In this document: piece by piece, positions 41,401 through 46,924 of the stretch
Layout of the letters: each line of letters starts with the position of its first letter
How positions within the stretch are numbered: position 1 is the first letter of the stretch
From: Savitreella phatthalungensis
Lineage: Eukaryota
Direction of reading: 5' to 3'
DNA length: 64,000 nt
NCBI GenBank assembly: GCA_051599415.1
Contig: AP039694.1
Span: 372,001 to 436,000, forward strand
Translations under genes and position numbers: made by a program
The notes under the pieces: generated by a model
Seen by the model: only the letters and a program-made list of their open reading frames with translations
Told to the model about the DNA's origin: nothing
Database searches by the model: none

Positions 41401-42287
41401 ATGCACCTAGGCGTAATCGGAGATGAGGCCTTAGCTCGTCACCCACCTCGACGAGTGGTTCAATGGATCCGGATTTTCGAGGGAGAGGCGAAAGTCCAAC
41501 TAGAAGATGTGCCGTTCTACAACACGCTCAGTCGCGGTGAGCCTATGACAATCCGGTTGAGACTGCCGCGTGAAAGTCGTACCGCCGCCGGAGCTGAAAT
41601 GCACCGACTTGCCACAATCCAGCATATTCGGAGCGCCTGGAAAGAGGTGGTCAATCGTCGCATGATAGCAATTGATGCTGCCCTTTCGCCTGTTGTGACT
41701 GCGCGCGACCGACTGCGCCGTCGACTCTACGCAGCAGAGCTCGAGACGCTCGACACGCTGCTGTACCGGCGGATCGAGATCGACTGGTGCTACCACACAC
41801 ATCGTCCGACCCACATCGTGATCCACCCCTCTGGAGAGCGAGAATACCACGCCCTCGTTGCAAACATCACCTCACAACCACTCCCCGCACGCTCCCACCC
41901 ACCGCGTCCACACCACCCACACACCGCTGACCTCGTTTGTCTCACATCAACTTCGACCACTCGGATCTCACCACCGCCGCACGCAGAGCCGCTCTTGTCA
42001 GCCAGATCAAAGAGGCCGTTGCTTTTAGTGCTCTAGGGACAGCCGCGATGCCTAGCGTCTGCGACGTGTACGCTCAGTACACTGACGAGACTGATGGTTT
42101 GCGTGGGAGGACGCGTTCACGATTTAGTGGTTGCGTGAAAGCGATCGTCATCGTACCTGGAGTGAGAACGAATGCAGTGCTGCTCAACGCTCTACCGGTA
42201 TTCATACACGGCGTCACCGGTCTCCCACACGTCGTCCACGTCTTCGGCAGACCCAACCACACGCACTTGTCTGCACAACACCGGTGA
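41401..42287 (+). pseudogene. Orphan gene split across two frames, probably a 1-nt frameshift near 41943
   Basis: ORF to 42036 degrades after ...ADLVC, while a protein-like frame (HINFDHSDLTTAARRAALVSQIKEAV...) starts at the same point and runs to 42287. Confidence 0.4.
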
Positions 42288-42362
42288 CATGTGTGTAAAA
42301 AAGGCATCAAGTATTAGATATCGACAGGAAAAAGAAAAATCATCAAGATGGGAAAGTCGTTC

Positions 42363-42662
42363 TCACATGATGGTGCATGGGGACGAGTAGTTCCAGGTGT
42401 ATGGGATGGCGACCTCGTTGACGGTAGTTGAGTCGCCTAGTGTTGCTGAGGAGGAGTCTCGCAGGAATGTTTGGTGAGTGGGCGGCTGAGCTTGAGTGTC
42501 AAAGAGTGAGCAAACATAGGGGGCCATGTTCCGCGAGCCTTGTCCAGCAGGTCGGCCGATCGCGAGCTCGTGGTCGCCGCCGTGTACAAACGTCGATAAA
42601 TTGTCAGCGAGTGCGTTGGAGAATGTAGGAAGTAGCTCTGATTCCAGCGATATTGCCGACAT
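42363..42662 (-). CDS. Small CaaX-terminated peptide; candidate lipopeptide mating-pheromone precursor
   Basis: 99 aa (54 aa from the internal ATG 42527) ending ...NEVAIPYTWNYSSPCTIM*; C-ending codon bias in the 3' part; TATAAG about 70 bp upstream; lies in an otherwise gene-free gap. Confidence 0.55.
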   Translation of the reverse strand: MSAISLESELLPTFSNALADNLSTFVHGGDHELAIGRPAGQGSRNMAPYVCSLFDTQAQPPTHQTFLRDSSSATLGDSTTVNEVAIPYTWNYSSPCTIM

Positions 42663-42729
42663 GGATTTTGTGCTTGCGTCTCACTCAGCCAAGCTTTTTC
42701 TTGAGGGCGAGATGGCACGACGTACAGAA

Positions 42730-43061
42730 CTTATATGATTGACTGTGATGTTCACTGCGGAACGAGTACGAACGGCGACGAGCGACGGCTCAGCGTCGAT
42801 CGTGATGATCCGCTCGTGTGTGAGCGATAGCTCAATCTCACCAATAGAGGAAGACGACCTTTAGGTGGCAAGGCGCGCAGTAACCCGAATAAATAACATA
42901 TCGTGCATGCATAAAATAGATAATTTAAATGAAAGTGCCATTGAAGGAGTTGCCTATTGTCTCAAACATTGTTCCCGCACAACGGAGACGCGGGAAGGCT
43001 GGTCACCGAGACATGGGTAGCGAAGCTCGAGGACTGAGACCTGTCGAGATCTGAGACAATG
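42730..43061 (-). promoter_or_regulatory. Putative promoter of the CaaX-peptide gene: TATA box plus three HMG-box-type ACAAT cores
   Basis: cttata 42730-42735 (TATAAG on minus strand); ctattgt 42954-42960; cattgtt 42967-42973; acaatg 43056-43061. Confidence 0.35.
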
Positions 43062-43212
43062 GACGAAGCGGTCTAAGACATGCAGCTTCTTCCCCTTCCT
43101 CACTCATAGAATTACTATGCTTCGAACAGTCATATAGATACACATAGAGGCGTGAAAATAATGCTTGATGAGCAGATAAGCAGGGTGACTGTGAAGGGAA
43201 AATAATGTGTGG

Positions 43213-44586
43213 CTATTCTTCAATCTGACCTCCGTTTGCGAGAACGAGCTCATTCAGGTCGACCAGGACGGTGTCGTAGTCAGACTCGAGCACGTGGCCG
43301 ATCGGCCAAGATCTACGGGCTTCGATGGCTGGGCGGACGAGGAGTAAGCATTTCTGACATAGCTCTAGGCCAGTGCTGACGACCAGGAGCTGGTCCGATT
43401 GGATGGCAGCGCGCTGTACCAGGGACTCGCTCAAGGTCAGCAGGTGGTCGAGCAATGGGCGCTCGATTTCTCTGGATGCCTCCCCAAACACCGCCCGCTG
43501 GTACTCGCCAAACCAGGCAACGAGAGCATCCACAGCCTTCTCAAGCTCTTCATAGTCTGCGGTTGTCATCTCGGGGACGGCTCCGATGTCGGCGACGGCG
43601 AGCGCCCGAGCACCGAGCCACTCTAGCTGGCTGCGAGTCGTGTAGAGGTTGTCACGTTTCGCGAGGCTGTACCAGGTACTTGTCCATGATTTCGCTTCGT
43701 CGGCTCGCGTGACTGGGTCCTCGTGGCGATCTTGTTCCCAATTGAGGAAGCGGTCGACCAGAGCAGGCGACACGCCAGCAGGCAGAGCGCTCTCAAAGAG
43801 CTCCACCTCACCCGCGCAGTCGACACACTCGCAGACAAACAGCTTCCCATCCAGCAGGGTCTTGCGCCTGGCATCGCGCATGTCCAGTGCCACGTCTGCA
43901 TAGGTGTTGAAAAGGACCTGTCCCTTGGCGATAGGTCGCGTGGCGATATGTCTGACCTTGATTGATGCTTCTGTTTCTGCCGGCGTCAGCGAATTGACCG
44001 TGTAGTGTGCCTCAGATCGCAGCGACCGCGTGCTCACTGCGACATTCGTCGACCGACAGGCATGTGAGACCTTGGCGCCCATGCGGAGCAGCGCAGCTGA
44101 CCCATCGTCGTCGACCTGGTGAGCATTCGCCAGCACAGCGAGGGCAAAGCGAAAAAGATCCCTCTCGCTGACGTTTGTGAGCTCCGGGAACAGGCCTTCG
44201 GAGGCGCGTGCATGTGTGCGGAGGGCAATGATCTCTCGCTTTGCCTGCCGGTACGCCTGCGAGGACGCGATCTGCTTGCCCAGGTGCTTGTCTGGGATGT
44301 GGTAGTATGAGAGCAAGTCCGCTCGTCGACTGGCAGAGAAGCCTGCAAACGTTACAGCGGCCTGAGCGGATCGACCGAGCTGCATATAGGCTCGACGCCT
44401 GCGGTACCTGACCGCGGCATCGACGACGATCACACCACCAGCGGGGACCCGATCGCCCTCAGCAGGCAGCAATAGCACGTCTGGTTGTTCCTCTAGCACG
44501 ATTGTCCCCGCAGGAATGTCCTCTCGCGCTACAGCGCAGTGGCCATAGACCGGATGATCTATGAGTTCAAGTGCCCCGGTCATCAT
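43213..44586 (-). CDS. SET domain (SMYD-like) protein lysine methyltransferase
   Basis: YGHCAVAREDIPAGTIVLEEQP, NAH, KVSHAC..N, IATRPIAKGQ.L...Y, post-SET FVCECVDC. Confidence 0.85.
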   Translation of the reverse strand: MMTGALELIDHPVYGHCAVAREDIPAGTIVLEEQPDVLLLPAEGDRVPAGGVIVVDAAVRYRRRRAYMQLGRSAQAAVTFAGFSASRRADLLSYYHIPDKHLGKQIASSQAYRQAKREIIALRTHARASEGLFPELTNVSERDLFRFALAVLANAHQVDDDGSAALLRMGAKVSHACRSTNVAVSTRSLRSEAHYTVNSLTPAETEASIKVRHIATRPIAKGQVLFNTYADVALDMRDARRKTLLDGKLFVCECVDCAGEVELFESALPAGVSPALVDRFLNWEQDRHEDPVTRADEAKSWTSTWYSLAKRDNLYTTRSQLEWLGARALAVADIGAVPEMTTADYEELEKAVDALVAWFGEYQRAVFGEASREIERPLLDHLLTLSESLVQRAAIQSDQLLVVSTGLELCQKCLLLVRPAIEARRSWPIGHVLESDYDTVLVDLNELVLANGGQIEE

Positions 44587-44736
44587 AGACAAGCATTATG
44601 TGCAAGCGACGTCGCGTGCATTTGAGATTGATTTCGGGAACACATCTAGGAATTCAATCATGGTAGCAATTGCGTGAAGGATACTTATTTTGCCCTCACT
44701 TATCGTCCATCAATGACTACATACATCCAGCTGATG

Positions 44737-46345
44737 TTAAGCAGCTTTGTGAGCAGGGCCGTTATGCCGAGTCAAGTATACGAGAGCAATGGACAGGATC
44801 ATGCCTAGGCCTGCGAGCCCGGTGCCTACGCGGAACGCTGCGCGAAAGCCGCGCAGGGGATCTTGTCCGCCGCGGTTGAGATGGACCTCGGTCGTGCCAG
44901 CGATACCGAGACCAATTGAGATTGAGTAGTTGAGGACAGTGTTGACTAGTGAGGCTGCAGCACCCTGCCTGTGTCGTGGTACATAGTCTGAGATGACGAG
45001 ATTGGCAGCCGGGAAGCTCATATCCATGCCGAATGGCGCGATCGCGACCGCCACAAAGCTCAGTGCCCAGTAAGTCTGATTAATCGGCGTGATTGACCAC
45101 AAGAGATTGGCGAGCGTGAAAGCTGTCATAGCTATCAGCATGATCCAGCCAGGCCTGACGCCTTTCGTGATAAGGGTTCCCGTGGCAGCACCGGCAATAA
45201 GACCAGAAACGACCACTGGCACGAACTGGGAAACGACGCGGAGCGGAGTACCCTGTCTGAAGACCTGAAGGAACTCCCAGCCGTAGTAGACGAAAATGCC
45301 AGCCGTAGTAGACGAAAATGCCAAATGAAGCCCACCCCAGACCGATGCAGCCGAGAATGAGTACGACCTCAACATTGAACATATCCGAGGAGACTAGTGG
45401 ATACGGCACAACTTTGACCTCGAGATAGCCGAAACAAAGGATGAGCGCAAGACCCACAATGAGGCAAACGATGACCACAGCGTTCTTCCAGGAGTCGATC
45501 GGTGCCTGATTCCAGGCAACGTTGAAGAAGACAAGCCCAGCGACGCCGACAGCTGCCGCCGGAAGATCGAGTTCCAGGATGGTTGTCCAGAGACCTGGTT
45601 CGCGACCAGATTTGTCGTGAGCAGCTGGAGAATGACGCCACGAGTCGACTTCCGCGGGAATCACGAAGAAACCTAGGGCTGCACAAACGAAGCAGACGAT
45701 CCCGTTCACCCAAAATGACCAGGCCCAGATCTGGGTGAGAAGGATGAGAGCGGAGAAGAGTCCACCGATGACGGCACCCGAGGGCGCGGTAGCTCCCAAG
45801 GCCGAAAAAGCGATGGCCTTCCGTGCACCTGTAGGATACGTCTGACCGAAGATTGCTACGGCGCAGGGCAAGACGATGGCGGGTCCGATGCCTTCCATGA
45901 CTCGACTGAAGATGAAGAAGGCTGAGTTATGTGAGAAGTAGCTGAAGCCACAGACGAGTGACCAAGCGCCGAACCACAAGAATCCAAGGATGAATACACG
46001 CCGATGGCCAAAAAGATCACCTGCTCGACCAGCGGGCAGGATGAATGTGCCGACAGTCAGACTGTAGCCTGCAATGAACCACGACAGCTTTCCCGGGTCG
46101 ATCGTGCCGAGCGTCGGTCCGATTGATCGCAACATGGACAGTGCATTGGCCAAGTTGGCCTGTGTGAGAAGTTGTGCCATGCAGACGGTAGAGATGAATG
46201 CTACCTCGTGAGGAAGCGACATCTTCAGTCGGGACGAGCCTTCATGCGTAACAATCCTATTCAGCCCATCACTACCCTCTTCCTTTCCAGCCTCCATTGA
46301 TCCCTCCGGCGAAGCACTTCTGTCTGGCTCCTGTATTGATGCCAT
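44737..46345 (-). pseudogene. DHA2-family MFS drug:H+ antiporter (ATR1-like), frameshifted by a 22-bp tandem duplication
   Basis: SWFIAGYSLTVGTFILPAGRAGDLFGH and FGMDMSFPAA motifs sit in two frames. Removing one copy of ccagccgtagtagacgaaaatg (45277-45320) restores a single 528-aa ORF (...ASFGIFVYYGWEFLQ...). Confidence 0.88.
45277..45320. repeat. Perfect 22-bp tandem duplication
   Basis: ccagccgtagtagacgaaaatg x2, followed by cca microhomology. Confidence 0.95.
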
Positions 46346-46924
46346 GATGCGATTCACCGACTTAGTTGGTGTGAGACTCCATCTTGACGCTGGTCCTGAA
46401 CTAGTTTTATAGTGTGTCTGTCAGATGCCACGGAAGTTATTCTTCGGCTATTGATGCCCTGACGATCATCAGATCATGCCATACGGCATATTGCGTATGT
46501 TCGTAGGCAAATTGGATCTCCCTCCATCGAGCGTGGCTCGAGCCGGCGCGTATTTACGGAACAAAGCGTATTTCGTCTGAGCCAATAAGGTGCAGCTCAT
46601 ACATTTTTCCAGTGACCTGTCGTACTCGGTTTCCAGCGATAGCGGTTGGTACAGCCTGAGTAGATCGCGGGAATTTAATCGCTCGCTCGAATCGATGCCT
46701 GATCACTGAGCAAGAGAATAGTGAGGCCTTTTAATATCGATCGGAACCTTAGCTGCTGAATGATCGATTGATTGAGGAAGATAAATCGGGACCATAATAT
46801 AACACCACATGTGTAGTCGACCACAAGCTCGAATCCAGGCCGGGCAGGCGGAACCGATGGTGATGAGCTGCGATGAGTGGAGACTCAGCACTTTGAGCTC
46901 CATCGTTTGACAGGAAGCGTTACA

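Follow-up and report, generated by a model that had tools for sequence, protein, structure and literature searches.

The stretch of DNA analysed here (the window) covers 64,000 nucleotides of contig C6 (G000:C6:372001-436000) in the 12.7-Mb, 27-contig genome assembly of Savitreella phatthalungensis. On its minus strand, at window positions 42363-42662, lies an open reading frame (ORF) of 99 aa, a candidate lipopeptide pheromone precursor, with a C-terminus that reads ...VNEVAIPYTWNYSSPCTIM*. A second in-frame ATG at 42527 (Met46) would give a 54-aa product, and translation bears out the first-pass annotation on the length, strand, intergenic position and shorter product of this ORF. A SET-like gene ends at 43213 on the 5' side and a convergent ORF ends at 42036 on the other, and the candidate's 5' end is the only one facing into the 550-bp upstream gap. 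The neighbouring genes are non-mating ones (SET-like, MFS, DUF3602, and hydrolases). The SET-like gene directly 5' of the candidate (43213-44586, minus strand) encodes a 457-aa singleton whose match to the SET domain is weak (E 0.0012), while the ORF at 41401-42036 (plus strand) is a 211-aa orphan, present as an NCBI protein, with no Pfam match and a weak coding score of 0.026 per codon. Further upstream, an MFS transporter gene (44737-46345, minus strand) is broken into two overlapping ORFs (421 and 212 aa), with the break at a tandem duplication of 22 bp (~45280-45320), and reflects either a frameshift or an assembly error.

To score coding potential, 26 window genes were used to train a 3-periodic Markov model. 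The frame of the candidate ORF scores +13.9 nats, against -9 to -31 for the five other frames, which places it at the 59th percentile among held-out coding segments, a value typical of genes. The signal spans most of the 99 aa, residues 17-46 included, and the final 60 nt outscore 99.4% of stop-free non-coding segments. The predominance of C-ending codons in the ORF tail, pointed out in the first-pass annotation, was recovered (14 of 20 codons, against 36% across the 26 window genes), as was the upstream TATAAG (42730-42735, minus strand), located 73 bp 5' of the first ATG. The A-rich start context claimed at the same time holds for the ATG at 42527, which has an A at -3, but not for the first ATG, which has a T at this position, as do 7 of the 26 window genes. 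The gene had also been thought unannotated, which is incorrect: the exact 99-aa protein is present as a singleton cluster in an NCBI-derived collection, so a gene caller had already found the ORF. The candidate ORF is, thus, confirmed as real, with ordinary coding statistics.

The CaaX tail and the predicted mature peptide

The ORF ends with the CaaX box CTIM and its stop codon (42363-42377, minus strand). This C-terminal box is of the farnesylation type, methionine in the X position being a farnesylation signal, and is identical to that of the Ras protein of the same organism. Upstream of it, two asparagines constitute putative a-factor-like cut points, as initially proposed. Following the rule that an aromatic residue follows the asparagine (bioRxiv 2021.09.28.462209), Asn91-Tyr92 would be the best-fitting Axl1/Ste23-type cut, releasing YSSPC (42375-42392, minus strand). 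Asn82 would be an alternative, releasing a 14-mer (42375-42419, minus strand), although the next residue, Glu83, fits the rule poorly. Both predicted mature lengths, of 5 and 14 residues, fall within the 5-20 range. A peptide this short is not impossible, as recognition by Map3 is reported not to require the N-terminal half of M-factor (PMC6342294). In contrast, the proposal that YTWNYSSPC is an M-factor-like nonapeptide did not stand, as this segment is preceded by Pro87 rather than by an asparagine, and its likeness to YTPKVPYMC comes down to two residues.

The published filter for a-factor genes asks for a CaaX-stop, an ATG within 100 codons, an asparagine 5-20 residues before the cysteine, and an aromatic residue after this asparagine (bioRxiv 2021.09.28.462209). 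The candidate passes it, as do the Saccharomycotina a-factor precursors (MFA1/2 of S. cerevisiae and computed candidates), but at its limits, YSSPC being at the 5-residue lower limit and 99 aa near the 100-aa upper limit. According to the same source, the Asn...CaaX filter yields 100-700 candidates per yeast genome, and a CaaX box alone is, therefore, weak evidence. The decisive step of the filter is a second copy or an orthologue, and neither a paralogue in this genome nor a homologue in the protein and metagenome collections searched was found. The gene is single-copy in the genome, and a word search for homologues returned one match, the candidate itself. A HMMER search of 1.84 billion proteins returned only the candidate and one 1770-aa repeat protein (P0008), which was rejected as a summed-repeat artefact. 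The Atlas search gave no usable match, and metagenome scans gave 442 pattern matches, none of which was confirmed, and none for the tail pattern. The protein has no Pfam domain and no confident fold (pLDDT 38, predicted from a single sequence and weak as evidence).

In the genome census, which covered part of the CaaX space and unspliced genes only, CTIM-stop occurs three times (reversed control 0), in Ras, a 346-aa repeat protein, and the candidate ORF, while about one occurrence is expected by a uniform-chance estimate. The wider CxxM-TRA pattern has 14 sites, of which 4 terminate long proteins, 1 is the candidate, and the remaining 9 have no more than 66 open codons. The pattern C-[ATVIM]-I-[ATVIM]-TRA has 46 sites (control 15); three terminate long proteins and another three terminate short non-overlapping ATG ORFs of 20-120 aa, among which the candidate alone has an asparagine 5-20 residues before the cysteine. 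Asn-Tyr...CaaX matches the genome 32 times, four of these matches being open and in frame (frames were judged by eye); the three that are not the candidate have no ATG or are contained in a long ORF. Around STE3, from 3.6 kb upstream to ~5 kb downstream, the search found no CaaX ORF that has a start codon. Matches to CTIT and CIIT near the ends of C9 and C12 were discarded, as they belong to 29-bp degenerate subtelomeric repeats common to these two contig ends (L052, C9 end; L057, C12 start). Another pheromone candidate may exist in the same genome.

A paired M-box-like element upstream

About 300 bp 5' of the ORF, ACAAT occurs at 42972 and 42960, 12 bp apart, within a pair of M-box-like HMG sites, AACAAT-N7-ACAATAGG (42953-42973, minus strand). 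This arrangement of M-boxes, the sites for Mat1-Mc, is the one listed among S. pombe M-specific promoters for mfm1, mfm2, and mfm3, AACAAT-N7-ACAATRGG followed 6-8 bp on by the Ste11 box AACAAAGA (PMC1693924 Table 3; stray zeros in the mfm3 row were dropped for the comparison), and the candidate promoter matches that of mfm2 at AACAATG-N6-ACAATAGGCAA. A third, degenerate HMG-type site, TTCAATGG (42938-42945, minus strand), lies at the position of the mfm Ste11 box, matching it at 4 of 8 bases, and a further M-box-like site, GAGACAATGG, is found on the opposite, plus strand (43053-43062).

The strict form, AACAAT-N7-ACAATAGG, occurs nowhere else in the 12.7-Mb genome. The loose form ACAAT-N7-ACAATRG has five matches (control 1), four of which fall within coding sequence or at the ATG of another gene; the flanking A and G of the strict consensus are present at the candidate alone. 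The number expected by chance per 550-bp gap is 3.5e-6 for the strict form, 1.1e-4 for the loose form, and 5e-3 for a generous two-site family; the last figure is the safer one, because the paired-box half of the mfm consensus was chosen after the match had been seen. Among 133 other upstream windows, none contains the paired site and one contains two ACAATRG sites. A three-site pattern, shaped post hoc on the candidate, matches only the candidate and two ACAATG microsatellites. As the ORF was picked without knowledge of the motif, the ORF and the promoter constitute independent lines of evidence. Nevertheless, the paired motif lies further upstream, at -311, than in the mfm genes (about -190 to -130), and the 550-bp gap contains no AACAAAG or ACAAAG Ste11 box, although one is present in every mfm promoter of the published table.

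Combining the M-box with the degenerate third site gave 37 genome matches (control 11), and the 30 that were examined include no convincing second small CaaX gene. The M-box combined with AACAAAG gave three matches, none at recognisable mating genes. TGAGACAATRG was rejected as a mating motif, as 10 others among its 12 genome matches are away from recognisable mating genes; the shorter TGAGACA occurs near STE3 and matPi. Among 17 inverted pairs, the inverted 9-mer found in the gap does not exceed chance level, and its hairpin is not significant (z -0.91).

Elsewhere in the genome, the 1.5 kb upstream of ste11 contain seven ACAAAG, against a background of 0.72 per kb, and there is one AACAAAG before mei2 and one ACAAAG before STE3; judging from these sites, Ste11-type HMG sites seem to be in use in Savitreella. 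The seven sites upstream of the ste11 orthologue (L085:1943-4500; C6, about 67900-70500) suggest a conserved autoregulation. In S. pombe, the counterparts of the exporter, methylase, and farnesyltransferase-alpha genes are listed with an M-box and a Ste11 box (PMC1693924). In Savitreella, no ACAATRG was found upstream of the exporter and ICMT genes, and the farnesyltransferase-alpha gene is preceded by one ACAATRG and one ACAAAG, 98 bp apart. At the level of these motifs, the M-box regulon is not visibly conserved, except at the candidate promoter. Two other loci carry similar pairs of sites. An M-box and an AACAAAG with S. pombe-like spacing lie ~170 bp 5' of a DUF7928 / glycosyltransferase-2 gene (L094 / L121; C12, about 83400-86200), possibly an M-specific gene, and ACAATAG-N5-AACAAAG lies ~370 bp 5' of a gene for a Cys-rich, apparently single-pass membrane protein with no Pfam match (L093; C6:327729).

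Mating genes of the genome

The first-pass annotation had recommended searching the genome for the receptor, the exporter, and the processing enzymes. A single STE3 was found, labelled "a-factor receptor [Savitreella phatthalungensis]" in the database; the gene is intronless (L086:5282-7463), and its ATG is only 169 bp from the stop codon of an upstream SET-domain gene. The exporter candidate is a Ste6-like ABCB protein, whose top PDB match is an a-factor exporter, by a slim margin over ABCB1 (512.7 vs 510.8 bits). The processing genes include ICMT, prenyltransferase alpha subunits, and an M16-family protease of 1142 codons; as these are mostly general eukaryotic enzymes, their presence adds little. 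The Ste11 HMG box is 66% identical to that of Protomyces ste11. Searches of the genome for the STE2 and alpha-box families gave no match, with controls that were silent as well, a negative that does not establish absence. T. deformans is described without mam2 (PMC4313921, PMC3648899), and Novakomyces without ste2 (PMC7912804), in the respective sources.

On C25 (L120:634-5694; about 41600-46700), next to cox10, which serves as a MAT marker in Protomyces (bioRxiv 594028), two genes face each other: one encodes a divergent HMG protein, the other a TALE homeodomain protein. The 3.6 kb that separate them consist of degenerate repeats with many HMG-type sites, and AACAATAG is found 108 bp upstream of the HMG gene. 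This pair is probably the MAT locus, which would be P-type-looking if its two genes are read as matPc/matPi. The HMG gene is presumed to be Pc from this pairing and from a resemblance; Pfam and the Atlas classify it as "HMG-like" only. No matMc was found among the seven HMG matches of the genome. According to bioRxiv 594028, the MAT locus of most Protomyces is of one type, P or M. If the same applies to this genome, in which the MAT locus looks P-type and matMc is absent from the HMG matches, expression of an M-box-driven gene would not be expected in this mating type.

Proposed interpretation as an M-factor-type pheromone precursor

The candidate precursor, of 99 (or 54) aa and with no need for an intron, differs from that of the Schizosaccharomyces M-factor; mfm precursors are of about 40 aa, so 99 aa is over twice that length. 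Members of the same subphylum, the two systems share a C-terminal CaaX box and a single peptide copy per precursor. The published Schizosaccharomyces peptides YTPKVPYMC and YQPKPPAMC begin with a tyrosine, as does the predicted Savitreella peptide, but the likeness is limited to Tyr, Pro, and Cys. The paired M-box with its 12-bp spacing is common to both promoters as published, whereas the Ste11 box is intact in Schizosaccharomyces mfm and degenerate here. There is one gene in Savitreella, against three reported in S. pombe (mfm1-3) and six in S. octosporus (So-mfm1-6), and, unlike in Schizosaccharomyces, no P-factor receptor was detected in the genome, in a search with a silent control.

The best reading of these data is that the gene encodes an a-/M-factor-type mating pheromone precursor of S. 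phatthalungensis, with a probability of about 0.65. The first-pass annotation had reached this reading from the CaaX box, the asparagines, and the YT likeness, which are weak grounds; what speaks for it is above all the promoter, which that annotation had not noticed, together with the census and the mating machinery. By analogy with the S. pombe and S. cerevisiae pathways, the HMG protein Mat-Mc would, in M-type cells, bind the paired ACAATRG sites and activate the gene, probably with Ste11. The precursor would then be farnesylated at Cys96, lose TIM, be carboxymethylated, and finally be cut on its N-terminal side, most likely after Asn91 (YSSPC) or Asn82. A Ste6/Mam1-like ABC transporter would export the peptide, and P-type cells would sense it through their single Ste3/Map3 receptor.

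An unlikely but better surviving alternative is a lineage-specific small prenylated protein, held inside the cell on membranes and perhaps regulated by mating type, with no pheromone function. It would account for a coding signal that includes residues 17-46, far from any mature peptide, and for a long, single-copy gene with no Ste11 box, and other CaaX proteins with no evident family exist in this genome, such as a 256-aa CVIM protein (L047). Nevertheless, the absence of any domain or homologue among 1.84 billion representatives is what is expected from a fast-evolving pro-peptide, Asn-Tyr precedes the CaaX box, and the promoter has the layout of the three mfm genes, while cwp1, mam4, and sxa2 are listed without the 12-bp pair (PMC1693924). 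That an intergenic ORF, a CaaX box, and an upstream motif coincide by chance appears improbable. CaaX-stops are admittedly common (367 matches for a relaxed pattern that admits TGG, control 269), an apparently non-coding 80-aa ORF in L033 ends with CTIV, and homologue searches did not find conservation, but the frame-specific coding score, the NCBI gene call, the TATA box, and the CaaX box shared with Ras argue against coincidence, as does the promoter match, given its chance expectation of at most 5e-3. Finally, it is very improbable that the ORF is either the terminal exon of some longer prenylated protein or a divergent G-protein gamma subunit. A donor-like GTACGT at 42724 and two branch-like sites, at 42608 and 42511, would fit an exon, but the SET-like gene has its own stop at 43213, no stop-free frame in the gap exceeds 97 codons, and no longer homologue was found among the 1.84 billion representatives. 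Fungal G-gamma subunits and small GTPases likewise end with a CaaX box, as Savitreella Ras does with CTIM. However, a normal G-gamma gene is located separately, on C21, with no alignment to the candidate, which has no GGL domain (PF00631) and no other Pfam match, in agreement with the initial remark that it lacks the conserved G-gamma helices and a small-GTPase domain.

Savitreella belongs to the Taphrinales, along with its relatives Protomyces and Taphrina, and has been described as a yeast without ascospores (PMC8877625). For Pneumocystis and Taphrina, the precursor genes map2 and mfm1-3 are stated to have been impossible to assess (Almeida et al. 2015, PMC4313921). Outside subscription journals and supplements, our literature search found no M-factor gene for Taphrinales or Pneumocystis, and no pheromone precursor identification outside Schizosaccharomyces after that study. 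If the candidate is indeed an M-factor-type precursor, a tentative and rather doubtful extension is that of a one-way system, in which it would be the only pheromone, an unusually short lipopeptide (YSSPC) from a long precursor, in Taphrinales devoid of a P-factor receptor, with a paired M-box kept since the split from fission yeasts. With no P-factor receptor in Taphrinales, M cells would signal and P cells would listen. If this holds true, the M-factor genes of Protomyces, Taphrina, and Pneumocystis could be searched for by means of the paired M-box. More generally, should the promoter layout hold, "paired M-box + small CaaX ORF" would offer a cheap filter for Taphrinomycotina genomes in which homology search fails. 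The candidate provides a concrete ligand that can be tested on a Taphrinales Ste3, and may open a route to revealing sex in a yeast for which no ascospores have been observed.
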